IMG/VR virus record: IMGVR_UViG_3300047554_000670
DNA from: an uncultured virus (IMG/VR IMGVR_UViG_3300047554_000670)
Taxonomy: Duplodnaviria > Heunggongvirae > Uroviricota > Caudoviricetes
Direction: 5' to 3' (one strand)
Length of the DNA: 64,000 bases
Below, one piece after another: positions 1,165 to 58,722 of this stretch. Numbering within the stretch: position 1 is the stretch's first letter; the number at the start of each line of letters is the position of its first letter. Under the pieces are notes generated by a model, which worked only from the letters and a program-made list of their open reading frames with translations, had not been told where the DNA came from and ran no database searches. The translations under genes were made by a program, and so were the position numbers.

Positions 1165-1999
1165 CTAGTCTTTATAATTTCTAATAATCACATCATTAAC
1201 CTTAACTCTACTCTCTTTAGTAGCACCAACACAACGAAAGGAAGATAAGTCAATAATCTCATAATCTCTATATAGTTCTCGTATTAAATCAGTTCCTGAG
1301 TTAGTCATTAACCATTTAGCTTTATTTAGACTATGGTTTATCCAATTAAATAATTGAACTTGATCAAATACAGAATCATTCCAGTAAGAGTTAAAGGTTT
1401 GGTCATAAGGAGGGTCTAGGTAGAAGAAGCTACTACTAAGGTCAAACTCTGTATCTACTTGACTATAGCTTGTATTTGTTATTACTAAGTCTACGGAGTT
1501 TAGATAATTATGAATTTTTACTAAGTTATTTACTATAGGGTCAATGTTAGGGGATTGTTTACCGTAAGGAACATTAAACTTACCTTGTTTATTAAATCTA
1601 CAGAGACCGTTATAACCAAAGTTTAAGAGATAAATAAATCTAGCAGATTGTTCTGCTAACTTAGGAAATATATTCTCTTCTAGAGAATTATCCATACTTA
1701 TTAAAGATATCTCTCTGTTTATAATATTCTTCCTCTGTATTAGATAAAAGAAAGAGACAATCTAACTCATATAGCATTATATGAAGTAGTTCTTTATTCC
1801 TTAAGCATCTCCACAGTAGGTTAACAAAAGAGTTAATGTCATTGAGATAGATATGGTTTGTTGGTTTATATGCAAGAAGTAAACTACCCATGCCTACAAA
1901 GGGTTCATAATAGTTTGTAGGCATAGTAGAAGGGAAGTACCTAATAATGTTGGTAGCTTCCCTTGATTTACCTCCTGTCCATTTACAGGGGGCTTTCAT
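1165..1999 (-). pseudogene. dam: Dam-family adenine methyltransferase split by a frameshift near 1690
   Basis: N-terminal half (1688-1999) has KWTGGK and EPFVGMG; C-terminal half (1165-1695) has YNGLCRFNKQGKFNVPYG and YLDPPY. The two ORFs overlap by 8 nt. Confidence 0.8.
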
Positions 2000-9628: not shown

Positions 9629-12600
9629 TTAAAACTTAATTTCACAGAAGTCACTATCACATCCACTAGGGCCACTAAAGGAGTCCTTAGCTGAATCATA
9701 TTTAGCAACTAACTTGTAGAAATCAATCGATGTATCAATTTTATTCATACGCCGCTCATATTCTTCTTTCGTACACTTCTCATAGGGTAGACGAGGGAAT
9801 GTATCTCCCATACGAGAAAGTAGGGCTGTAGAAATATAGGGTTTGTTGTTATGAATATCAGCGTAGATTTGAGCCGCTAGAGTTTCAACCTCATTCTCCT
9901 TAAGCAAAATCGTACTCGACGTATTATGAGTCGTATAGTAGGTCTGACATTGCATCCAGAACTTATATTGAGCTAATGCACTAACTTCACTACCATCAAA
10001 CCAATCAGGAACTGTGTCTACATGAATTGGAATTTCTACGAGCCAAGTCTTAACACGAGGGTCAAATGGGTCGTTAAGAAGAACACCATTCTCATCGGTA
10101 TCAGTTTGTCCAGGTACTACTTCATAACCAAAGTCATAACATGCTTTAGCTACAGCCGTTGCAGGGTCCATCGTAATACGACGGATATAGTAAGCAGCTT
10201 TAGGGGGTTCCCAGCTATTAGTGTATCCAGTAAGAAGAGTTTGAGAACCTTCAGGCTTTAACCCACTATAACGATTAGGGCGCTTTAGACCTTGTTCATC
10301 ACAATAATCAAATACACCATCTCGTACAGCTAATTTCCAATAGGTAAGGATAATACGTTCATAAGTAGTGAACATCCAACCCAAATCTAGACCCCAACTC
10401 TTATTAGATAAGAAGGAGTCAATTGTATCAAAAATATTAAAGCTTACATCATTTTTAAGTAGCTCTTTAACTTCTGGTTTACTAGACAGAATAGTCTTAA
10501 CTACAGAGGTGACGAAAGAAATTCGCTCATGTTCTTCCTCACTAAAATCATAATGTTCTTGAACCCACTCATCAGGTCTTCCATACAATTCTGGAGGACA
10601 TGTAATATCGTCTGATTCGTATCCAGAAGGCGCAGCAAGCCACCATTCACACCACTTAGGTCCGAATAGCCATGAGAAGAATTCAAAGCCCTCTGTGAAG
10701 CTTGCAAGGACAATAGGGTCAATCTCTCGTGAGTAGGCAAATTTCTCATCAGGAAATTTATGCTTAAGCAATGGGGTCATAATCAAAGCAGAAGCATAGA
10801 AAGCCTTATACATTAGAGGTGCTAAGTCACTAGCATTAAGTTTGTTAACAATAAATTCTCTAATAAGAGGGCGTAAGTGGGTAGAAGATAAGTTGCACAT
10901 GAAGTCACTACCTTCTACTTCACCACAGTTGCCCACTAACAAACCCGCATGAATACTGAATCTGTTGGTCCCTTCTACAGTACAACAATAGACTTCAGGA
11001 GCATTACTGTTAAAAGAAATCTGTTTAACTTGGTTTGTCTTATTCTTAAAGCTATTAAGAGTAGCTTTGTCTCCTAAGTCCTTAAGCCGTTCAAAAGTAC
11101 ACAATTGACCAAGCTTAATGGAATCTTTTTGACTTAGACTAATCCGATAAGTATCTTTACAGTTACACAAACCTCCTCTTTCAGGACCAAAATCCTTAAC
11201 ACCTCCTTTACGAGCAGGCCCAATCTTAGAATTAATTCCTAGAGTACGGAGGAGTAAGACTAGACCCTCTAAGAATGGACGAGAGATACTTGTAAGTTGA
11301 TAACGGAAACCACTATTGCTATCTTGAGCAGTTCCATCAGCATCAAACAAACCTGCAATAAAATTAGCTTTACTTTCGTTGTCCCAGTTAAGAACTTCGT
11401 AAGGGAATTCATGCTTATACTTGTAACACCAAGGATTAAGGTCTTCTTCTACAGCAGTTAGGCTTTTCAGACGATCTGAAGGTGTAAGTCCAACTTCATA
11501 ACTACCTGTACGGCCATTCATTTCACGTTGGGAGGCAAATAGCCGGTCAAGACAGACCATCTTTGGTGCATAGATTTTACACATGGCACCTTTTCCATTT
11601 GAACTAGTACCATCACCAATAAGGAAACCTTTAAGGTAAGCTCCTTTAGCTTTAATAGTACCTTCTACAGGAGGAATATCTGTGGTCATTAACTCATCAC
11701 CAACTTCCAAGTCTTTAAGTTGTTTTTCAGTACCATCAACAAGAATAAACTTATGGTATGCGGTTGCTGTGATAATAGACCCATCATGAAGTTCTACATC
11801 ATAAACATCTTGGTCGGTAGCTGTAACACGGAAGTTATCTACTTTACGCCATTCTGTACCATCATAAACTTCAACTTCCTTACCTACGAGAGTTTCAATA
11901 GGGAAGTAGCCCTCACGAGTCATTACAATAGTACCGGGAGCAAAACAAGGGTTAAGCTGATATCTACTGACTCTATGGGTTAACTCTCGTTCATCAATTT
12001 CCTTACCAAACTTATCCTTATATGCTGTACTAAATAGTTCTTCAAAACTAATTTGATTATCTACAGCTTCGTTAACTTTAACAATTGCATCTTCATTTTC
12101 AAACAAATCAACATTTGCTCGTGCTAAAGCTACGGGTACGTACTGAATAGCTCCTTCACCACAAATAAATTGTGTACGAACTGCATTCTCTACTTCTTCT
12201 AGTGTAGGTTTATGAAAATACAACTTAGTAAAGTTAGAGAACTTGAGTGATTTCTTCTCTTCATCAGCTACCCAAGTCCCATCATCAAGCTGAGTCCACA
12301 GATTCATCTTGGCATCAGCCGTAGGGTCATCAAAGTCAAACTGTTCAATCTTTGCACTTCGTCGCTGTCCTCCCGCTACAGCCCATGCTGCAAACTCATT
12401 ATTAATAAGAGCACAATCTAAAGTATTGATTTGTTGGGATTCAGTAAGTGCTACACGGTTAAGAATATTAGTTAGTCGTGTAAAGAACTCTTCCGTATAT
12501 ACAGGATTAGCAATTCCACCAAATCCTTTACAGGGAGTACCGTAAGGACGAATAGAACTTAGACATACATGGATGGTGTACCCATTAAGAAGAGCCTCTT

Positions 12601-13246
12601 GTAATTTTTCTTTCGTTACATTCGTAAGTAAAGGGATACCAAGTTTATCTTTATCCTCTAAAAAGTATGCTCCATTTGTGTAAAGCTCAAACAATGCATT
12701 AGTTGCACTTGCCCAACCTTCTCTACTATCACCAACTTCAATAGTGATTAAGGATTGGTCTTCACTTAGATATAACTTAGTGTGTTCAGTGTAGGAAGGG
12801 TTATCAAATCCGTATTCACCAAAATAACCTGTAAATTCAAGATTAAATACATTTACTACTTTAGAAAGCTTCTTAAGATTAACTTCTCGAATAACCTCAC
12901 CTTGTCCACAACCCAGAAATAGATTGTTAAAAGACCGAATAAAATCATAGAAACTAACAAACATAGTTCCTGAGCAGTTATAGAAAGCATAATAACCAAA
13001 CGGGTCATTCTCTTTATTACTACCGGCTGCCCACCAAACACGTCCACTAGTATTAGAAATTTCCTTATTAAAGAAATCAGATACAAGTTCTTCTTGTTCC
13101 TGTGTATACTCTCCCATACGAAGAGTGAAATCAAGTTGTCTTTTCTTTTGGTCTTGCTCTAGAAACTCCCATCGGTCCTCAATTCGTCGATAAGTACGAG
13201 CATTTACAGGATAACGAGTTAATGGATTAGAAAGATTAAAAGTCAT
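9629..13246 (-). CDS. nrdJ: Class II (AdoCbl-dependent) ribonucleotide reductase containing an intein
   Basis: YNCS, GDSREGW, VAGGQRRSA, NP/CGE active site, CNLS, KPEGS, HNTSSTI and C-terminal GCDSDFC. Confidence 0.93.
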   Translation of the reverse strand: MTFNLSNPLTRYPVNARTYRRIEDRWEFLEQDQKKRQLDFTLRMGEYTQEQEELVSDFFNKEISNTSGRVWWAAGSNKENDPFGYYAFYNCSGTMFVSFYDFIRSFNNLFLGCGQGEVIREVNLKKLSKVVNVFNLEFTGYFGEYGFDNPSYTEHTKLYLSEDQSLITIEVGDSREGWASATNALFELYTNGAYFLEDKDKLGIPLLTNVTKEKLQEALLNGYTIHVCLSSIRPYGTPCKGFGGIANPVYTEEFFTRLTNILNRVALTESQQINTLDCALINNEFAAWAVAGGQRRSAKIEQFDFDDPTADAKMNLWTQLDDGTWVADEEKKSLKFSNFTKLYFHKPTLEEVENAVRTQFICGEGAIQYVPVALARANVDLFENEDAIVKVNEAVDNQISFEELFSTAYKDKFGKEIDERELTHRVSRYQLNPCFAPGTIVMTREGYFPIETLVGKEVEVYDGTEWRKVDNFRVTATDQDVYDVELHDGSIITATAYHKFILVDGTEKQLKDLEVGDELMTTDIPPVEGTIKAKGAYLKGFLIGDGTSSNGKGAMCKIYAPKMVCLDRLFASQREMNGRTGSYEVGLTPSDRLKSLTAVEEDLNPWCYKYKHEFPYEVLNWDNESKANFIAGLFDADGTAQDSNSGFRYQLTSISRPFLEGLVLLLRTLGINSKIGPARKGGVKDFGPERGGLCNCKDTYRISLSQKDSIKLGQLCTFERLKDLGDKATLNSFKNKTNQVKQISFNSNAPEVYCCTVEGTNRFSIHAGLLVGNCGEVEGSDFMCNLSSTHLRPLIREFIVNKLNASDLAPLMYKAFYASALIMTPLLKHKFPDEKFAYSREIDPIVLASFTEGFEFFSWLFGPKWCEWWLAAPSGYESDDITCPPELYGRPDEWVQEHYDFSEEEHERISFVTSVVKTILSSKPEVKELLKNDVSFNIFDTIDSFLSNKSWGLDLGWMFTTYERIILTYWKLAVRDGVFDYCDEQGLKRPNRYSGLKPEGSQTLLTGYTNSWEPPKAAYYIRRITMDPATAVAKACYDFGYEVVPGQTDTDENGVLLNDPFDPRVKTWLVEIPIHVDTVPDWFDGSEVSALAQYKFWMQCQTYYTTHNTSSTILLKENEVETLAAQIYADIHNNKPYISTALLSRMGDTFPRLPYEKCTKEEYERRMNKIDTSIDFYKLVAKYDSAKDSFSGPSGCDSDFCEIKF
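10928..11947 (-). mobile_element. Intein (340 aa) with LAGLIDADG homing endonuclease in nrdJ
   Basis: Begins CFAPGT after NP and ends LLVGN before CGEV; LAGLIDADG motifs YLKGFLIGDG and FIAGLFDADG. Confidence 0.93.
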
Positions 13247-44372: not shown

Positions 44373-44783
44373 AAGGCGATTGCTCTATCCACTGAGCTAC
44401 CAGGGCATATACACCTGATTTTCACAGGTGTTGCTGTTAATTATACAGCATTTTAATACAAATTGTTCACTCCTAGCAAGATAGTCCAAACAACCCAGAA
44501 GAGAGACCACGAGTAATTCTCACGGTCAAAGTCAATTAAGGCATTAAAGAGAGAACAAGTTATACCCAGATAAGTCCAAAAAGATAAGTCCATCATTAGC
44601 GTAATCCAACGAAAATAAGTTGTAGTTGAATAACTATGGCCATAGAACAGAAAAAAATCTGTGCATGAATATTCTTTTTATAGGTACTGTCACAGGCCAT
44701 AAATACAGCATAAACAAAAGATAGTTGGCGAACTAGTTGTCCAATCGAAGCAAGATCCAACATAAGACAATCCAAATGACAGC

Positions 44784-44825
44784 AAAAAGAAGAACTAGGG
44801 TAACCCTTATGAGCTACCCCAGTTC
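44784..44825 (-). terminator. Terminator ending the tmRNA coding piece
   Basis: GAACTGGGGTAGCTC-ATAA-GGGTTACCCTAGTTC followed by TTCTTTTT. Confidence 0.85.
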
Positions 44826-44995
44826 AATGATTATGCTACAGCAAGAGAGGTCTTACGAGCAAAAGGTTTGATTTGATTCGCATTTACACGATTTTGTCCT
44901 TCTTCACCTATGTAGTATATACATAGGGTCGGTCCTGGACTCTAGACCGGGTACAGTATTTCACTTCATTAACAAATCGATACCAGGACACCCCC
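44790..44995 (-). ncRNA. ssrA: Two-piece tmRNA, coding piece
   Basis: 5' GGGGGTG-TCCTGGTATCGA, P2 strand TTTGTTAAT, pk1 CGGTCT/GGACCG with GTCC/GGAC; resume context TAAAT-GCG; tag ANQIKPFARKTSLAVA-stop at 44881-44831. Confidence 0.9.
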
Positions 44996-44999
44996 AAGG

Positions 45000-45092
45000 T
45001 AGGGCAGGAGGGACTCGAACCCACAACCGCGCACTAATCTGGTGCATACAGAAGGTATAAGCTTCTCGCTCTACCAATTGAGCTACTGCCCC
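45000..45092 (-). tRNA. tRNA-Ile(TAT) with long variable arm, nested in the tmRNA intervening segment
   Basis: GGGGCAG/CTGCCCT acceptor, AGAAG-CT-TAT-AC-CTTCT anticodon arm, V-arm GCAC-CAGATTA-GTGC, A73. Confidence 0.88.
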
Positions 45093-45160
45093 TGGTGGAG
45101 GTGAGCGGAGTTGAACCGCTGTCTTTGCTAACTCCATTAATACTTTTTAGTACCATATCG
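45093..45160 (-). ncRNA. ssrA: Two-piece tmRNA, acceptor piece (5' boundary approximate)
   Basis: GGTAC..AGTATT..GTTAGCAAA-GAC-AGCGG-TTCAACT-CCGCT-CACCTCC-A-CCA; pairs with GGGGGTG, giving the G3:U70 Ala determinant. Confidence 0.9.
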
Positions 45161-45196
45161 TAAATATAAGTATACAAGACTGTGTACTTATACCCA

Positions 45197-45248: not shown

Positions 45249-47290
45249 GTCAAATAGCAATCTTCTAAGATAATCATATGGTTCAGGTTCCTTTCCATAT
45301 ATTTCTTTCGTTGTTTCATAATACTCCTTAAAATATGTCCAATAGAACAAATCAGTCTCACCCTCAAGTAAGTAATTGTCTAGACATTCTCCATCAGAAA
45401 GAAATGTTAACGGAGTATACCCTTCACACTCTTCATCTATATACTCTATACAATTCCCTTCTTCTTTCATCCAGTACATTACGACTTCAGAAAATCTTAT
45501 ACTAGTTATTCCCCCTTCACTTGTAATATACGCTATTTCATCTCCTGGTTTAGGGAATTCATCTTGTAAAGACTTAAAAGTTATAGTTATCATATACAGC
45601 TAAGGTTAGGGTTATCATAAGAGGTCTTCTTTAGTAATAACATCATTACTTTTAACAAAGGTTAGACCTAAAGCTTCTAGACCTACTTCTGTTAAGTCTT
45701 GCTCATCATCCATGGATAATTCAAAGTAGTAATGTGACATTTTGTATTTAATCCCCTTCCAGTGTTTACATTTCTTACCTTGTTGTGCCTTAGACATAAC
45801 ATCTAGTAGAGTGCATAGTCCTCTACCAAATCGTTCATTCTTAATCTTTACCCAGTGTCTGCAACTTCCGCATTCACGTTTAGGCTTGTTTCTCATTAAG
45901 AATACACACTTTACTTGATAAGTTGAGCTAACGCGCTTGTAAGTACCTCATTAACAATTAGTTGACCAAAGTGATTAGGGCTAGTTGCTACATCAGCTAG
46001 AGATAGAAACAAAGTAAAGATTCCAAACTGGTTAACTATATTTTCGCAAGTCTCTTTAGTTAACCTTAAGTAACAAAGACCATCATCTTCGTAAATAGGA
46101 GTGAAGAGAAGTACCATATCGGGGTAGCAATGACCACTGGGGAGGCTTAAAGATGTCTCAGATAGCTTATTCATAGCTCCTACTAAGAGAGGCTCTACTT
46201 TATCTTGTGCATACTTAAGACACCAATCCATGAGCTTACTATTATCAACGTCTTCTGAGGAAAGAAAATTAGGAAGACTTGAGGTTAAAATATCTCTAAG
46301 TTGTTGTTCTATTTCATTAATCTCTTTTTGAATCTCACTTTCTGGCATTTCTATTAGTTCATTCATAGTTAGCCGTTTTGTCTCTAAAATCCAGCTAACA
46401 AGCTGTTTAGGGTCTAGAAAATCCGAATGTATCCCTATGTTAGTACGAATTAGATTCGCATGAGAAGAATCTAATTTATCTATAACGAAAGAAATATTTA
46501 GGTATTCGTCTTGAAGTAGTAAACCATTATCAATTGTATGGTCAGTTTCTACAAGTGCATTGGCTAACAACTTAAGACTAAGGCTAATTGCTTTATACAT
46601 TGAATTTGCTCCGTATATAGTTGATAGGTTGAGGCACTTTATCCATTAAGTGAAACCAAAAGTTAGGCGTAATGAAAAACCTGTCTCTAGATGCAGTGAA
46701 AGGTCCAAATTTCTTATCCGGGTTACTAAGATAAAACAGGTAGTTGGTTTTACACCAGAATCTAATATTAGCCCCAATCAAAGTATATATTTCAATAAAT
46801 ACTTTGTACTTAAGTTCGGTTCCATCCTCTGCATAAGATTTACGGTCTTGAATAGCGACACTAACCCAAGCAAGTCCTAGAAAATAGGTTCTGGTTAAAA
46901 TTCTTATCCCATATCCGTAATCATCGGTAATAAGCCAATGTTTAGTGTCAAAGTCTTCTGCTATGGGAAGAAAGGCTTCAAAACCATCATACTCATTATG
47001 CTCCATATCAGTTATCCTCATTCTGCCATCTAACTAGGTATTCACGAAGGGCATCACAAATTTCTATGTCACCTTCTTCTAAATGATCTTCAACCGCACT
47101 TATATTTATGACATAAGGACCATAATAATCTCTTAAGATATACCAAGGCATATCATCTTCATAAATCTCTAGTCTGAAATCAGGGTCTCTAAAATAAGGG
47201 CTTACATTCAAAGTAGTTGGATAAAAGTGAGTCCATTCTATTTCTAAACCTACACCAGGGGCTGTTCTTTCACACATCATATCAATATGC

Positions 47291-47500
47291 TTAAGGATTG
47301 TTATTTTCATTTTCTTTCGTAATTAACATAAGGCGGAATCCACGATTTGAACTATGACCATTCCCCTGTTCTTTTATGTACTTAGACCTTGTGTTCCAAG
47401 CGCTATTGTTCCATCCTCCGCCTTTACAACAAGAACCTAAAGCTATTGTGTATAACTTGAAAGGAATCTTACGATAACGACCTACATGAATATATACCAT
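47291..47500 (-). CDS. VR-like mini-protein 1
   Basis: ...GGGWNNSAWNTRSKYIKEQGNGHSSNRGFRLMLI... Confidence 0.75.
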   Translation of the reverse strand: MVYIHVGRYRKIPFKLYTIALGSCCKGGGWNNSAWNTRSKYIKEQGNGHSSNRGFRLMLITKENENNNP

Positions 47501-47639
47501 TGTTTTTTACCTCAATCAATAGTAAACGAAATCCCGTATATACATTCTTACTAGAACTTGTACATTTCCCATATTCGTTCGATTGACAATGCCAAGTAAA
47601 TGAGACCCAAGAACCCCCTGTGTATTTAACTAAGTGCAT
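47469..47639 (-). CDS. VR-like mini-protein 2
   Basis: MHLVKYTGGSWVSFTWHCQSNEYGKCTSSSKNVYTGFRLLLIEV... Confidence 0.8.
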   Translation of the reverse strand: MHLVKYTGGSWVSFTWHCQSNEYGKCTSSSKNVYTGFRLLLIEVKNNGIYSCRSLS

Positions 47640-47697
47640 CAGGAATAACCTCAACTAAAGCTAACCTAAGACCAAACTTATAAGACTTATCTTCCAT
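47626..47697 (-). CDS. Truncated VR-like unit 3
   Basis: MEDKSYKFGLRLALVEVIPDALS (C-terminal half only). Confidence 0.55.
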   Translation of the reverse strand: MEDKSYKFGLRLALVEVIPDALS

Positions 47698-47830
47698 CTT
47701 TGTTAACCCTAACTAACATTAATCTGAAACTACCATAATTGTAGGAGTGGTTGTGTCGTGCTAAATAACAATAATTAGACCGACAAAACTTAGCAAAGTA
47801 AATCCAGGAACCACCATAGTAATCATTCAT
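47687..47830 (-). CDS. VR-like mini-protein 4
   Basis: MNDYYGGSWIYFAKFCRSNYCYLARHNHSYNYGSFRLMLVRVNKDGR. Confidence 0.8.
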   Translation of the reverse strand: MNDYYGGSWIYFAKFCRSNYCYLARHNHSYNYGSFRLMLVRVNKDGR

Positions 47831-47978
47831 CTTTTTGTACCTCAATTAACATTAGCCGTAACCCGTTATCGTTATCGTGGGAATTACTGCGTTGCCACCA
47901 ATCACGAGACTCAGACTTACAGATTCTAGGGATAAGATACCATGTACCCCCAGCATAGGGGATATATTCTTTAGTCAT
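47823..47978 (-). CDS. VR-like mini-protein 5
   Basis: MTKEYIPYAGGTWYLIPRICKSESRDWWQRSNSHDNDNGLRLMLIEVQKDE. Confidence 0.8.
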   Translation of the reverse strand: MTKEYIPYAGGTWYLIPRICKSESRDWWQRSNSHDNDNGLRLMLIEVQKDE

Positions 47979-48124
47979 TAGTTAAACTCCACTAACATTA
48001 AACGAAGACCTAGGATGCTGCTGGAATCCCCGCGCAGCCACCTGTAGCGATTCGCAGACAAACAGCCCCCGGCAACGTAGCTCCAAGAACAACCCATCCG
48101 TTTATCGTGACAATAAGAATTCAT
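47978..48124 (-). CDS. VR-like mini-protein 6
   Basis: MNSYCHDKRMGCSWSYVAGGCLSANRYRWLRGDSSSILGLRLMLVEFN. Confidence 0.8.
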   Translation of the reverse strand: MNSYCHDKRMGCSWSYVAGGCLSANRYRWLRGDSSSILGLRLMLVEFN

Positions 48125-48184
48125 TGGTTTACCTTTACTAACAAAAATTAAGGGAACCCAGAGAGGCCCAGATTCCCTACAAAT

Positions 48185-49012
48185 TTACATCTTCAGACTA
48201 TCCAGCTTTTCTTGGACAGCTTGCATAGTCAGTTGAGTTTGACGCAGAAGCTCTTCCAGTTCAGCTTGTTCTTGCGCGAGTTTAGCTTGTTCTTCTTTTA
48301 CTTTGTTAGGAAATACACTGAAGATATCAGGACACATCTCCTGTAGTTCTTCTTCACTACATACAGCTTCCCCAACATTACCATGCGTATCGTACAGACC
48401 CCAGGCATTAGGAAGATATGACCGAACCACCGTAGTCTGCCCTACGTGGTTGTTAAAGTTAGCGTCCTTCTCCGTAAGAGTATCCCCTACGTTAAAGGCC
48501 GTTGTAGTACCTGCACGACAATAGAGTTCCCACAGATATGATGTGGGGATTACGAACATGTAGTTTTTATTGGGATAATCCTCTTTTAGAGCTTTATTAG
48601 CAAATTCTAGCCATTTGATTACATCAAGGAAACTCACCGACTCTACAGGGAGTTCCCAAGGGTCAGCACCCGCCTGTTCTTCTGCAACCGACTTAAAGCA
48701 AGCAGGGTCAGGATTCAGACCCGATTCCGGATAACGGTCCACAATAGACTTCCATTGTCGTCGAGTTACTGGTGTATCCCCCATAGAGGCTTTATGCCCC
48801 ATATACTCAGCACCCTCATGATAATAGAAACGAGAACCGGGAAGAGTCGAAAGAAATGTAAAGGGAATCATTGTTGTGTCCTCTTGAATTAACAAAGTAC
48901 GAAAACCAATGTAATTATCACTGACAAATAGGCCGCATAAGTAAGAGTCATGGTAGTCGTAGCAATTACCATCCCATGACCCACCAAGGAAGTTAAACTG
49001 ACCGTCTGTCAT
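48185..49012 (-). CDS. FGE-sulfatase/CLec core lacking its C-terminal VR, with VR unit 7 fused in frame at the N-terminus (internal start 48871) and a C-terminal coiled coil
   Basis: TPVTRRQW, PVESVSF.D, PT...WE.YCRAGTTT.F..G, ANF and PNAWGLYDTHGNVGE motifs; no GGSW/GFR after GNV; GAGG RBS before the internal ATG. Confidence 0.88.
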   Translation of the reverse strand: MTDGQFNFLGGSWDGNCYDYHDSYLCGLFVSDNYIGFRTLLIQEDTTMIPFTFLSTLPGSRFYYHEGAEYMGHKASMGDTPVTRRQWKSIVDRYPESGLNPDPACFKSVAEEQAGADPWELPVESVSFLDVIKWLEFANKALKEDYPNKNYMFVIPTSYLWELYCRAGTTTAFNVGDTLTEKDANFNNHVGQTTVVRSYLPNAWGLYDTHGNVGEAVCSEEELQEMCPDIFSVFPNKVKEEQAKLAQEQAELEELLRQTQLTMQAVQEKLDSLKM

Positions 49013-49143
49013 TTGTATACCTCGATTAACAGCAAACGAAAACCTATGTAGCGACCATTATGTTCTGAAGGCCACTGAGAGATGCTCATAGAGATACAGA
49101 ACCAATCTGAGCTATATAAGCCCCCTCCTCTATATGGAGTCAT
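49009..49143 (-). CDS. VR-like mini-protein 8
   Basis: MTPYRGGGLYSSDWFCISMSISQWPSEHNGRYIGFRLLLIEVYK. Confidence 0.8.
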   Translation of the reverse strand: MTPYRGGGLYSSDWFCISMSISQWPSEHNGRYIGFRLLLIEVYK

Positions 49144-49289
49144 TTGTGAACCTCAAGTAACATAAGACGGAAACCTCCTATATAGTCTGACCCATCACGA
49201 AGCCACCTACCTCGATTCATTGCTTTACAATATACTCGATAGGTAAACCAAGAGCCTCCTATGTAGTCAATATAACTAGACTTAGCCAT
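49140..49289 (-). CDS. VR-like mini-protein 9
   Basis: MAKSSYIDYIGGSWFTYRVYCKAMNRGRWLRDGSDYIGGFRLMLLEVHK. Confidence 0.8.
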   Translation of the reverse strand: MAKSSYIDYIGGSWFTYRVYCKAMNRGRWLRDGSDYIGGFRLMLLEVHK

Positions 49290-49431
49290 AATTAGTTGCC
49301 TCAATCAACATCAAACGGAATCCAAAAGCTTTATCATGATAACTAGGAGCAAGATAGTAAAGGTACTTAGACCTATTTAGTACTGGGCCACTAATGCAGG
49401 AACCCCAAGTATATTCAATGATTTTACGCAT
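49282..49431 (-). CDS. VR-like mini-protein 10
   Basis: MRKIIEYTWGSCISGPVLNRSKYLYYLAPSYHDKAFGFRLMLIEATNYG. Confidence 0.8.
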   Translation of the reverse strand: MRKIIEYTWGSCISGPVLNRSKYLYYLAPSYHDKAFGFRLMLIEATNYG

Positions 49432-49570
49432 CAGGTTTCTCAACTAAAGTAAGACGAAAGCCAAAGCGGTTGAACTGGTAATCACTCTGATTCTTGAACC
49501 TGATCGCCGAGCGAGTGAAACTAGTGATGTTGTAACAAGAGCCACCCGCGTAATCAACAAATTTAGGCAT
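49424..49570 (-). CDS. VR-like mini-protein 11
   Basis: MPKFVDYAGGSCYNITSFTRSAIRFKNQSDYQFNRFGFRLTLVEKPDA. Confidence 0.8.
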   Translation of the reverse strand: MPKFVDYAGGSCYNITSFTRSAIRFKNQSDYQFNRFGFRLTLVEKPDA

Positions 49571-49572
49571 AT

Positions 49573-49737
49573 CTACTTTACCTCTATTAGCATTAAACGA
49601 AAACCAAAGTCAAAATAATCTTTCTTGGTAGGCCACGGAATAAGACTATAGGTATTACCATCCCAGTCTTCTGCATCAACATTCCAAGAACAATATGTAA
49701 AGTTTGTATGGTTAGGTCTTGACCTAAAGTCTTTCAT
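49573..49737 (-). CDS. VR-like mini-protein 12
   Basis: MKDFRSRPNHTNFTYCSWNVDAEDWDGNTYSLIPWPTKKDYFDFGFRLMLIEVK. Confidence 0.8.
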   Translation of the reverse strand: MKDFRSRPNHTNFTYCSWNVDAEDWDGNTYSLIPWPTKKDYFDFGFRLMLIEVK

Positions 49738-49876
49738 TCTGCACTTCGATAAGCATTAAGCGAAATCCACCATCATTGTCGGAAATGTCGCAAAGCCTCC
49801 AGTGACAGAACTTAGATTTACAATCCCCAGCAAAGTAGCTCCAAGAACCTGCTGTAAAGTCATAGAATCTAGACAC
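49724..49876 (-). CDS. VR-like mini-protein 13 (GTG start; also in frame with the end of unit 14)
   Basis: VSRFYDFTAGSWSYFAGDCKSKFCHWRLCDISDNDGGFRLMLIEVQNERL. Confidence 0.78.
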   Translation of the reverse strand: MSRFYDFTAGSWSYFAGDCKSKFCHWRLCDISDNDGGFRLMLIEVQNERL

Positions 49877-50019
49877 TAGTTTGTCCCCCCCCACTAGCAT
49901 TAAGCGAAATCCTTTGTTCCTATAAGATAGGTATTTCATACCCCAATATGGTAAGCAGACATACTGTATTGAGAAGAGTTATTCCAAAAACCACCTCTAC
50001 AACAGTCGTAATTATCCAT
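49877..50019 (-). pseudogene. VR-like unit 14, frameshifted near 49940
   Basis: MDNYDCCRGGFWNNSSQYSMSAYHIGV-stop, then MKYLSYRNKGFRLMLVGG in another frame. Confidence 0.7.
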
Positions 50020-50164
50020 TAGGGAATGCCTCTACTAACATTAAGCGAAAACCCCCGTTGTCGTAGGAATTGTCGCGTCGCCTCCTGTTGCGATACGCAG
50101 ACCGACAGAACCACGGATTGATGAGCCAGGAACCCCCCTGTGATACGGAGAGGTTTAATCCCAT
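50012..50164 (-). CDS. VR-like mini-protein 15 (closest to a canonical cyanobacterial DGR VR/TR)
   Basis: MGLNLSVSQGGSWLINPWFCRSAYRNRRRRDNSYDNGGFRLMLVEAFPNG. Confidence 0.8.
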   Translation of the reverse strand: MGLNLSVSQGGSWLINPWFCRSAYRNRRRRDNSYDNGGFRLMLVEAFPNG

Positions 50165-50196
50165 AACTATTCACTTTATACAAGGATTCAAAGGAT

Positions 50197-50334
50197 TCAA
50201 GCATTTTCCGTGACCTTTACTAACATGAGACGAAAACCTCCGTAGTTATAATCATAGGTAGGGGGCCAGAATTCGCAATCATCCAAAGCGTGAAAGTACC
50301 AAGCGGTCCCTCTATAGTAAGTCCATGGTTGCAT
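50197..50334 (-). CDS. VR-like mini-protein 16
   Basis: MQPWTYYRGTAWYFHALDDCEFWPPTYDYNYGGFRLMLVKVTENA. Confidence 0.78.
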   Translation of the reverse strand: MQPWTYYRGTAWYFHALDDCEFWPPTYDYNYGGFRLMLVKVTENA

Positions 50335-50479
50335 TAGATACCCTCGCAATTAACATTAACCTAAACCCATTCCTAGGGCTATTGTCTGCGTAAACTCCAC
50401 AGCATAAGGGTTTACAGTTATCTTGACTTCCGGTACTCCAATGTCCCCCTTTACGACATGTTCTTATATGTTTCTTCAT
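50312..50479 (-). CDS. VR-like mini-protein 17
   Basis: MKKHIRTCRKGGHWSTGSQDNCKPLCCGVYADNSPRNGFRLMLIARVSNATMDLL. Confidence 0.75.
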   Translation of the reverse strand: MKKHIRTCRKGGHWSTGSQDNCKPLCCGVYADNSPRNGFRLMLIARVSNATMDLL

Positions 50480-51230
50480 AGGCTAACCCACTCATATATT
50501 TTCCATCAATAAACACTTTATAAGGACGCTTCATATCTTGACAATCCCAGAAAAACAAATCATGACTGTAATCTGGAATATGAGTTGTGTACTTAGGCCC
50601 ACCCAAACTATTAGATAGGAAGTATGTACGTTGATACCACTCAGGAACTGTATTGAGCCTCCACGTAGGGAATATCCCGATTTTATCGACTGGTTTAATT
50701 GTTCCCTTAGCAGTCTTCTGATTGGTAGCAAATACCTTCAGATTCATGTATGCACGGTATGCAGAGACACAAGATTCCCAAGAATGAGGCTCAAAATACC
50801 CTTTACTTTCGTTATACGCTCCATAATTAGCTCTCACCATATCAGGCATAGCTAAAGGTGGTGGAGTTAACTCTGTAGGAGGAGCATAGTAGTCAATAGT
50901 CTCTACAAAATCACGAAAGCAACTAATATGAAGAGAGGCTGCATCACCGTTTTTACCTTTCTCTAACCAATTATTATTAAGAAGCTCTAGAAGTTCTAGC
51001 AAATAGGTAAAGTTAGATGAACTTTCTCTCACCCATACAGCGCTAGGGTGATTTACATGGGTAGGAGCGCATAATCCTTGTTCTCTGAGCTTAGTATGGA
51101 GTTCTTTATCCCAAACATAGATTGCTGTAGATGAGAGTTGACAATATTCAGTTCTCATCTTATTGACATAATTGTCACAATAAGATAAAGCACACAGGGA
51201 TTTATCTTGGTCAAAGGGGAATATGTTCAT
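50451..51230 (-). CDS. Pyrimidine-dimer DNA glycosylase (DenV/Pyr_excise)-like protein
   Basis: MNIF..D...A...CD..V.KM..E..Q, THVNHPS.VW.R.S..N, AMPD and AYRAY motifs. Confidence 0.7.
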   Translation of the reverse strand: MNIFPFDQDKSLCALSYCDNYVNKMRTEYCQLSSTAIYVWDKELHTKLREQGLCAPTHVNHPSAVWVRESSSNFTYLLELLELLNNNWLEKGKNGDAASLHISCFRDFVETIDYYAPPTELTPPPLAMPDMVRANYGAYNESKGYFEPHSWESCVSAYRAYMNLKVFATNQKTAKGTIKPVDKIGIFPTWRLNTVPEWYQRTYFLSNSLGGPKYTTHIPDYSHDLFFWDCQDMKRPYKVFIDGKYMSGLAYEETYKNMS

Positions 51231-57447: not shown

Positions 57448-58722
57448 TCACCTATCCTGAACTTCCACCCCTAATGCTAACAATTTCTGATGTATGAGGT
57501 CAGCTTCAGCCCAGTTCTTAGCTTTACGAGCTAAGTTTCGAGCCGAAATAAGTTGTAGTACATGCGAACTAAGTGCCTCATCTTCAATTGCCATAGCTCT
57601 TAACCCTAATACATCTGCCAAAATCAACAGCGTAATGCTATTGCAAGGAGTTAAGTTCTTGGCTAACTCAAATAGAACTGCTAGAGCTTTGGCTGTATTA
57701 AGGTCACAGTCTAAAGCATCGTTGAATCGGGCAACAAAATAAAGGTCAAATTGACTATCTTCGGTTATATTCTCCTTAGCTTTAATCAAAGCTTTATTCA
57801 GAGATTTCCAACTATTTGATGCGGATTCAAGAGCCTCCGTGGTAAATGCTAAAGGTTTACGGTAGTGAGCTTGAAGCACAAATAACCGTAGTGCCATGGG
57901 AGAAATACCCTGGAGGTCTAGCAAGTCTCTGATAGAGGTAAAGTTCCCCTGAGACTTAGACATCTTATCCCCATTGAGGGTTACAAATCCATTGTGGAGC
58001 CAAAACTGAGATAACATATGTCCCGTAACAGCCTCAGACTGTGCAATCTCATTCTCATGATGAGGAAATACGAGGTCCGCACCTCCACAATGAATATCGA
58101 TACGGTCTCCTAAAGTATCTCGAATCATGGCGGAGCATTCAATATGCCATCCAGGTCTTCCTGGACCCCATTTAGAGGGCCAGTTAGGTTCTTCGGGTTT
58201 TGCGCTCTTCCAAAGAACGAAATCATTTTCTTTCGTTACCTCGATATTTCGTTTTGAAAGCTTACCATAGCCTTCAAACTTACTTATGTCAAAGTAAACC
58301 CCATCATCTTTAACTTCATAAGTGTATTCTTTCTGTTCTAGCTCATGAATTAGTCGTTTAATTCCATCAAGGGTATGAGTAACACGAGGGTAGGCATCAG
58401 CTTTCATAATGTTAAGCCTTTCCATATCCTCAAAATATGCTTGGATGTATTTCTCCGCTATGTCCTCCATAAGTACATTTTCTTGTTTGGCCCGGTTGAG
58501 AATCTTGTCATCTATATCAGTGAAGTTCTGTACATACTTCACCTTATAACCTAACCAAAGAAGATATCTGCGTAGGGTGTCCCAGACAATATAGGAGCGG
58601 GCATGGCCAAGATGACAATAATCATATACGGTTACACCACAGCAATATATACTAACTTGCTTTGGTGTAAGAGGTTGAAAGAGTTCTTCGCGACGTGTGA
58701 GGCTGTTGTAGAGGTATAACAT
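57448..58722 (-). CDS. cysS: Cysteinyl-tRNA synthetase
   Basis: CGVTVYDYCHLGHAR, NFTDIDDKI, GRPGWHIECSAM, DIHCGGADLVFPHHENE and KMSKS motifs. Confidence 0.97.
   Translation of the reverse strand: MLYLYNSLTRREELFQPLTPKQVSIYCCGVTVYDYCHLGHARSYIVWDTLRRYLLWLGYKVKYVQNFTDIDDKILNRAKQENVLMEDIAEKYIQAYFEDMERLNIMKADAYPRVTHTLDGIKRLIHELEQKEYTYEVKDDGVYFDISKFEGYGKLSKRNIEVTKENDFVLWKSAKPEEPNWPSKWGPGRPGWHIECSAMIRDTLGDRIDIHCGGADLVFPHHENEIAQSEAVTGHMLSQFWLHNGFVTLNGDKMSKSQGNFTSIRDLLDLQGISPMALRLFVLQAHYRKPLAFTTEALESASNSWKSLNKALIKAKENITEDSQFDLYFVARFNDALDCDLNTAKALAVLFELAKNLTPCNSITLLILADVLGLRAMAIEDEALSSHVLQLISARNLARKAKNWAEADLIHQKLLALGVEVQDR

Follow-up and report, generated by a model that had tools for sequence, protein, structure and literature searches.

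Why would a phage keep one lectin-like scaffold gene amid fifteen small genes, each of which encodes the very segment that the scaffold lacks? The question is raised by positions 47,291 to 50,479 of a 64,000-nucleotide stretch of DNA (hereafter the window) from an uncultured virus of the Caudoviricetes, IMG/VR record IMGVR_UViG_3300047554_000670. This locus holds an array of short cassettes on the minus strand together with a single core of the type of C-type-lectin (CLec) domain found in formylglycine-generating enzymes (FGE). A sequence-only reading of this DNA had proposed that the phage splits the domain between these two kinds of genes. In our assessment the chances are evenly balanced that the phage has indeed split a CLec domain, whose missing part would be supplied in trans from a stock of variable segments, each translated from a gene of its own. 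The homology of the parts, the gap in the core, the start signals and the structure model with cassette c3 speak for the proposal, while the production of the peptides and their binding to the core are inferred.

An FGE-sulfatase core inside the array, as had been recognised earlier, was confirmed by its motifs and by a profile match above the cut-off. The open reading frame (ORF) at 48185-49012 (275 amino acids, aa), which is fused to cassette c10, carries the motifs LPVESVSF, CRAGTTTAF and PNAWGLYDTHGNVGEA, and its match to PF03781 spans positions 38-191 of the 255 in the profile (48.2 bits where the cut-off is 23.3; E 1.5e-12). A search of a representative library with the core gave 25,867 proteins at E<=0.001, the best 150 of which were long FGE-type proteins. 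The core also matches phrog_18508 (positions 54-196 of 266, E 2.3e-20), and its top sequence match in the PDB is TvpA. In alignment A2, which comprises the core and 38 homologues, the core is unalignable past GNVGEAV, where most homologues continue with RGGSW..CRSA.R..GFR. The GGSW...GFR segment is absent at exactly the point where it was expected, and two long helices are found instead. The core does not form a complete single-chain FGE domain, as its profile match stops at position 191 of 255 and the remaining segment lies in separate ORFs. The helices span residues 235-258 and 263-274 of the AlphaFold2 (AF2) model at a predicted local distance difference test (pLDDT) score of about 62-75; this agrees with the helical part of the earlier description, whereas the coiled coil named there is presumed from the sequence.

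A relative's contig skips 78 nt (26 codons) within this tail (window 48200-48279), and copies of a 16-nt direct repeat are found at 48258 and 48279, so that the length of the helical tail appears to vary between strains. No second FGE match was found in the 71-kb viral record G001, which is identical to the window over 20 kb, and no further cassette was detected outside the array in the 64-kb window; the sole scaffold thus sits inside the sole array.

Around the core, a six-frame regular-expression scan of 47200-50560 detected 17 GFRLML-like motifs, all on the minus strand between 50479 and 47291. The count of 17 cassettes given earlier holds for the motifs, but just 15 cassettes (c1-c15) are intact, one being frameshifted and one reduced to a 23-aa stump. 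An intact cassette consists of a GGSW-like motif, a variable middle (often with C-x-S) and the end GFRLML(I/V/L)E(V), and measures 44-71 codons, the free cassette ORFs being 44-71 aa long. The overall pattern of the earlier consensus is present, but exact GG(S/T)W was found in only 6/15 cassettes and C-x-S in about half; the remaining cassettes carry GGHW, AGSW, GCSW, GGSC or GGGW in place of the first motif. The features of the array are as follows.

50312-50479, minus strand: cassette c1, 55 aa; at its start it overlaps with the end of the upstream gene 50451-51230
50197-50334, minus strand: cassette c2, 45 aa from ATG (50 aa from TTG at 50349); GAGG at -11
50012-50164, minus strand: cassette c3, 50 aa, the most canonical (GGSW...CRSAYR...GGFRLML); phrog_18508 match, docked on the core in the model
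49890-50016, minus strand: frameshifted cassette remnant, with RGGFWNNSS... in one frame and ...NKGFRLMLV in the frame of c4
49724-49939, minus strand: cassette c4, a 71-aa ORF including the remnant tail; c4 proper from about 49882
49573-49737, minus strand: cassette c5, 54 aa; 52/54 residues identical in the ortholog P0277
49424-49570, minus strand: cassette c6, 48 aa; GAGGT at -14
49282-49431, minus strand: cassette c7, 49 aa from ATG
49140-49289, minus strand: cassette c8, 49 aa from ATG; GAGG at -13
49009-49143, minus strand: cassette c9, 44 aa; its stop overlaps the c10 start (ATGA)
48872-49012, minus strand: cassette c10, 47 aa, joined in frame to the core's N-terminus; ends in GFRTLLIQEDTT
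48356-48871, minus strand: FGE-type CLec core, internal Met48 to GNVGEAV; PF03781 and phrog_18508 matches, without GGSW...GFR
48188-48310, minus strand: helical C-terminal tail of the core ORF, presumed coiled coil; AF2 helices
48151-48178, minus strand: terminator-like hairpin (12 pairs, loop of 4) directly after the core stop, then TAATTTTTGT
47978-48124, minus strand: cassette c11, 48 aa
47823-47978, minus strand: cassette c12, 51 aa; GGAG at -12
47687-47830, minus strand: cassette c13, 47 aa from ATG; GAGGT at -13
47626-47697, minus strand: stump of a truncated cassette, 23 aa, MEDKSYKFGLRLALVEVIPDALS; the GAGGT upstream of c14 lies in it
47469-47639, minus strand: cassette c14, 56 aa from ATG; orthologs P0272 and P0274
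47291-47500, minus strand: cassette c15, 69 aa; at its end it overlaps with the start of the downstream gene 47008-47310

Searches of the PDB and of phrog_18508 and a joint alignment identify the cassettes as the C-terminal GGSW...GFR segment of FGE-type CLec domains, in agreement with the earlier assignment. A profile of the cassettes gave nine PDB matches, eight of which are the extreme C-termini of FGE-family chains (E 0.04-1.5); the matched proteins include EgtB-IV (425-461 of 463), TvpA (258-290 of 294), PorK and related lipoprotein chains, human FGE and OvsA. Within the 266 positions of phrog_18508, cassette c3 aligns to 222-263 (E 2.1e-6), and this family is therefore covered by two separate gene products, the core at 54-196 and c3 at 222-263. 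The MAFFT alignment A3 placed all cassettes on the C-terminal RGGSW..CRSA.R..GFR segment of 31 homologues. Pfam gave no FGE match for 14 single cassettes, since these are too short. That this segment is the ligand-binding part which is diversified by diversity-generating retroelements (DGRs), as the sequence-only reading held, agrees with Mtd, TvpA and TaqVP, where a C-terminal variable region of 40-45 aa is the diversified binding site according to PMC6328139.

The cassette frames contain no stop codon in about 780 codons in total, while each minus-strand frame of the region, read end to end, has 44-82 stops per about 1060 codons. Together with the lack of cassettes elsewhere in the window, this shows that the array is not a product of chance. 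The cassettes are old paralogues, the closest pair sharing 21/44 residues (maximum about 48%), and at the DNA level only junction repeats of 33-42 nt with 62-82% identity are left. Tandem Repeats Finder did not report the array because the repeat is too diverged as DNA, and Rfam and tRNA scans found nothing within it. The GFRLML motif is conserved as protein and not as DNA, its G being written with 4, F with 2, R with 5 and the first L with 5 different codons. A decaying pseudogene array was also considered, and it was rejected in view of the open frames, the ATGs and the conservation at the protein level.

The variable parts are enriched 3-fold in C and W and 1.6-1.8-fold in Y, S, G and R, with E, V and L underrepresented; C stands in the third codon position in 26% of cases against 13% in the background. 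Such a C/W/Y/S/G/R-rich composition is typical of binding sites. The composition fits a binding surface, and possibly an ancestry as DGR target. Two cysteines with C-x4-C spacing occur in c1 (CKPLCC), c4 (49724-49882; CKSKFC) and c13 (CRSNYC). We take this site to be the position of the catalytic cysteine pair of true formylglycine-generating enzymes, a pair which presumably falls within the segment that the core lacks; given the 3-fold enrichment of cysteine, these pairs may be due to chance.

Each of the 15 cassettes has an in-frame ATG upstream of its GGSW motif. A Shine-Dalgarno (SD)-like 4-mer at -20 to -5 precedes 10/15 of them, as compared with 22/49 large ORFs and 15% of random positions. 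It is usually a GAGGT formed by the 'E-V' codons in the tail of the preceding cassette, 6-9 nt before the ATG, and the cassette starts abut or overlap the previous stop, e.g. by ATGA between c9 and c10. Inside the fused ORF, Met48 is preceded by AGAGGA, 7 nt and ATG, so that the scaffold could plausibly be made without c10 as well. The hairpin stem after the core stop was confirmed, although the z-score of the 71-nt stretch is just -1.1; owing to this terminator-like hairpin with its T-run, c1-c10 with the core may be expressed differently from c11-c15. Neither the start at Met48 and this hairpin nor the whole-domain paralogues of related cyanophages (see below) figured in the sequence-only reading. 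Another frame holds a 61-aa ORF across c3 (50019-50204, minus strand), the ATG of which follows an AAGG of the c2 tail, and c3's own ATG has no SD-like word.

A complex of core residues 48-232 (alignment A2) and c3 (alignment A1) was modelled along with three controls. The complex of core and c3 scored 0.95 and the best of the three controls 0.02. The 0.95 mark is reached by 116/157 solved complexes and by 2/215 mismatched pairs, a calibration that holds only roughly here because our own alignments were used. At least 98% of the contacts are shared between the three runs, in which the partner has a pLDDT of 81 or more. The contacts with the least predicted error lie between c3 residues 39-44 (FRLMLV) and core residues 76-82, 152-156 and 215-216. 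The core has a pLDDT of 93-94 with c3 and of 56-61 with unrelated partners, and that of c3 is 28 in the control with unrelated chain 1. As far as the model goes, the split is structurally compatible; this is a statement of likeness and not of binding.

The proposed mechanism goes beyond the observed layer of anatomy, homology, open frames with start signals, strain turnover and model-level compatibility; the production of the peptides, their attachment to the scaffold, oligomerisation by the tail and the nature of the ligands belong to the layer which we infer. The scaffold would be one gene, read from Met48 of the ORF 48185-49012 up to the GNVxE strand and lacking the last 35-40 residues of the domain, and its helical tail probably drives oligomerisation. 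The missing piece, i.e. the GGSW strand, the variable ligand loop and the closing GFR strand, would be encoded 15 times in the form of separately translated mini-genes with conserved framework residues and hypervariable middles. The GFRLML strand of a peptide is predicted to insert between the scaffold strands 74-82 and 152-156, thereby completing the fold in trans. In the infected cell one scaffold could then be loaded with up to about 15 binding surfaces. Such a repertoire would be germ-line and need no reverse transcriptase. Cassette c10 would additionally be made as an N-terminal fusion to the scaffold, and turnover of the array would come about through unequal recombination at its conserved ends as well as through the exchange of variable parts.

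We place somewhat less than even confidence in the fuller view of a natural split-domain recognition system, in which the scaffold is completed non-covalently by any one of about 15 interchangeable segments. A cyanophage would thereby own a set of specificities that requires no reverse transcriptase, and it could direct this set at, e.g., host sensors diversified by DGRs or variable surface structures. Our guess for the target is a set of variable molecules of the host, a cyanobacterium of filamentous or colonial habit. Targets inside the cell are more likely than virion-borne action, since the array lies among non-structural genes and its products have no signal sequence.

Several points weigh against a domain completed in trans. 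The docking of the peptides on the core, which the sequence-only reading had put forward as a check, passes its controls with c3, but this model spans only one of the 14 free cassettes, and that one is the most canonical. The pass may moreover reflect what the model retains of intact FGE folds, because both chains belong to a domain that has been solved many times as a single chain. The full-length c10-core ORF might be self-sufficient, as a cassette is already fused to the scaffold there. Family profiles recognise just 1/15 cassettes alone (PHROGs), an SD-like word is not clear in 5/15, and the terminator-like hairpin parts the core from c11-c15. The ORF boundaries are not fixed, c1 and c2 being one 105-aa frame in the relative P0270 and c4 being fused to the remnant. 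None of the 10 sequencing runs found with this DNA is recorded as RNA. The core-plus-array layout was found in this phage lineage alone.

This last point comes from searches of several kinds. The DNA of the array has no match among 50,697 phage records, and the core protein has no relative in viral contigs. A degenerate DNA pattern, GGNTTYCGNYTNATGYTNNTNGAR, was used to seek cassettes elsewhere; in viral sequences it occurs at 15 loci with a single match each and no array, and in genome contigs it was found in at least 120 stretches, with a single match each among the 80 listed. A scan of one metagenome with the core gave one weak match, L003 (37% identity, residues 38-85), without an array. 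The layout was thus found nowhere else in the phage records, the viral contigs, the one metagenome scan or the genome-contig matches listed, and no title or abstract in the literature was found to describe an equivalent core-plus-array system.

Close relatives of the array exist, in which cassettes have been swapped or deleted. In the relative protein P0001 the core is 96% identical and the junction is the same GFRTLLIQEDTT, while the variable part of the fused cassette is wholly different and matches the window cassettes in at best 15-18 of 36-45 residues. A search with the cassette profile gave eight short relative proteins. Three of these (P0271, P0273 and P0275) are identical to window cassettes, P0272 (50/55) and P0274 (35/45) are orthologs of c14, and P0276 shares the c15 tail GFRLMLITKENENNNP with a different variable part. 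P0270 has c1 and c2 in one frame followed by the tail of c3, so that c3 is deleted in this relative; the c1 part is identical through the variable region and the c2 part in 40/44 residues. Contigs from other freshwater metagenomes were aligned at 80% likeness, at which the joints may partly reflect repeats or other organisms. One joint (49751->49896) is an exact skip of 144 nt with 17 shared letters in the c4 region, another (50032->50218) has 9 shared letters and lacks c3, and in a contig of run X4 the stretch 47994-48127 (c11) is replaced by 110 other letters. The array turns over between strains by swap and deletion of cassettes. No special enrichment is claimed, since the flanks are mosaic too: the array, with 43% of the aligned stretch, has 8/13 joints, and the flanks have 5/13.

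This turnover bears on the alternative that the sequence-only reading itself had named, i.e. recombinational swapping of cassettes into the fused position. The changed fused cassette of P0001 and the cassette-sized deletions and replacements in relatives agree with it, but the non-fused c11 and c15 have been replaced as well. If the array were a store of this kind, only the c10-core fusion would work, as a circularly permuted CLec domain, and the other cassettes would be donors that enter the fused position by homologous recombination at the conserved GGSW/GFRLML ends. We regard this as possible and rather unlikely. The fused cassette of P0001, which keeps its GFRTLLIQEDTT end and changes its variable part, speaks for such a store, as do the joints at conserved motifs (49751->49896 and 50032->50218) and the loss of c3 in P0270; recombination of stand-alone cassettes is established for polymorphic toxins (PMC3482391). 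Silent donors, however, need neither the ATG that 15/15 cassettes have nor the SD-like word that 10/15 have, and stops and frame changes lie between the cassettes. Junction DNA of 62-82% identity over 33-42 nt, with many synonymous differences, would also be a poor substrate for recombination. The replacements in P0276 (c15) and in run X4 (c11) did not take place at the fused position, and no window cassette resembles the fused cassette of P0001 beyond the 15-18 of 36-45 residues given above. Two AF2 models lack confident docking in cis, an outcome that speaks neither for nor against a circular permutation: the 275-aa fused ORF has a mean pLDDT of 62 and P0001 of 60.4, with the N-terminal cassette below 50 in both, where the alignments have no depth.

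Less probable still is that the cassettes encode independent small effectors which act without the scaffold, either as mimics that disturb FGE/CLec sensors of the host or as small binders. The probable cyanobacterial host lineage and the position of the array among non-structural genes would suit such a role, and DGR-diversified FGE/CLec sensors on STAND NTPases are a proposed defence of multicellular bacteria (PMC10907252). Host domains carry the segment in cis, though, so a free peptide would compete poorly, and a piece of 45 aa from a beta-rich fold would hardly fold on its own, as also seen in the pLDDT of 28 of c3 in the control. A phage scaffold that lacks exactly this segment sits, moreover, in the middle of the array. 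Very improbable, in our judgement, is an origin of the cassettes as DGR product or relic, whether diversified by an unseen reverse transcriptase or left over as functionless retrohoming copies. Each cassette does span exactly the region which DGRs diversify in FGE-type CLec domains, and Y, N, S, D, C and H abound in the variable parts with third-position C doubled, as is expected of AAY-derived codons; about 56 kb of the 136-kb genome also lie outside the sequence examined. Against this, no reverse transcriptase was found with PF00078 in the 71-kb G001 or among the domains of the 39 larger window ORFs (about 80 kb of the 136-kb genome covered), and no template/variable pair was found, the direct repeats in 47000-50700 being at most 33-50 nt long with 62-82% identity. 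The cassettes vary in length and throughout rather than just at adenine-coded positions, their 3' ends are not conserved at the DNA level, unlike the homing signal that would be needed, and their open frames and ATGs speak against decay. A DGR active on the array was accordingly rejected as a candidate within the roughly 80 kb covered, which hold neither reverse transcriptase nor template repeat.

A close known parallel to the array is found in Microcystis phages (Ma-LMM01/MaMV, genus Fukuivirus), which carry proteins of the same phrog_18508 family annotated as 'kinase' or hypothetical. The Microcystis phage MaMV-CH01 has four complete FGE genes, three in tandem (PP681321.1, 29607-31680) and one separate (47243-48043), all of which are annotated as hypothetical. 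The cores of these paralogues share 67-89 of 119 residues and their GGSW..GFRV tails 9-19 of 32-34, and cyanophages are therefore seen to diversify exactly this segment through paralogues. Microcystis phages likewise multiply the segment in cyanophage FGE-type domains with conserved cores and divergent tails; their copies, however, are complete single chains with a tail each, whereas the window phage has one tailless core and 15 mini-gene tails. No publication containing both 'Ma-LMM01' and 'formylglycine' was found in the literature.

The variable proteins of DGRs (TvpA, Mtd, TaqVP) have the same fold, TvpA being the top PDB match of the core and the cassettes aligning with its residues 258-290 of 294. 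The variation of a DGR arises when its reverse transcriptase copies a template repeat into the one C-terminal region of a single polypeptide; in the window array the variants are instead stored next to one another, each as an ORF of its own, and the segment stands apart from the core. A further comparison is offered by silent or orphan cassette arrays, such as the C-terminal modules of polymorphic toxins, contact-dependent inhibition (CDI) systems and Rhs proteins, pilE/pilS and vlsE. These resemble the window array in keeping alternative variable modules with conserved ends beside one full gene, but their cassettes are untranslated donors for a C-terminal position, whereas 15/15 window cassettes have an ATG. 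The junction DNA of the window array is, in contrast, poorly conserved, and its lone fused copy is at the N-terminus of the core. Turnover between strains via recombination at conserved ends is a further point in common with such arrays (PMC3482391).

If the split domain is real, it would represent a third way to diversify a lectin-fold binding site, beside DGR mutagenesis and whole-gene paralogues. It would be compact, at about 150 bp per specificity against about 550-800 bp per whole-domain gene in Microcystis phages. It would also provide a natural case of fragment complementation for combinatorial recognition and a reusable scaffold for protein engineering, and would open a line on how phages of bloom-forming cyanobacteria face hosts that hypermutate their FGE/CLec sensors. 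Even as a cassette store, the array would be the first of its kind for a CLec domain in a phage among the literature titles and abstracts found.

The window belongs to a contig of 136,124 bp. Its phage genes lie nearly all on the minus strand and include a family A DNA polymerase, a primase-helicase-like AAA_25 protein, an intein-bearing ribonucleotide reductase (as it probably is), a cysteinyl-tRNA synthetase and Dam-type methyltransferases. A cyanobacterial host is likely, because the closest isolated phages by DNA polymerase are Nodularia siphoviruses (27% identity), FGE-domain relatives are present in Microcystis phages, the sequencing runs with this DNA are freshwater metagenomes, and the window has a permuted tmRNA which we take to be of cyanobacterial type.

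This permuted (two-piece) tmRNA lies at 44831-45154 on the minus strand (Rfam RF04321, 83.6 bits); ARAGORN places it at 44740-45185 with the tag peptide EEGQNRVNANQIKPFARKTSLAVA, and it is overlapped by a tRNA-Ile(tat) call (44998-45092). The depth at the tmRNA locus is high in other metagenomes, which suggests similarity to host genes. Among the neighbouring genes, the 1205-aa ORF at 9629-13246 (minus strand) contains an intein splicing domain together with a LAGLIDADG homing endonuclease (residues ~433-772), with a weak match to the insertion domain of B12-dependent ribonucleotide reductase, and it is probably an intein-containing reductase of this type. The cysteinyl-tRNA synthetase at 57448-58722 (minus strand) is full-length (PF01406, E 2e-122, plus a DALR and an anticodon-binding domain), and such a gene is unusual for a phage of about 136 kb. 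The adjacent ORFs at 464-1156 and 1165-1695 (minus strand) resemble the D12 N6-adenine methyltransferase profile over its positions 1-204 and 103-249 (of 253), and may be either tandem Dam-like genes or one rearranged gene.

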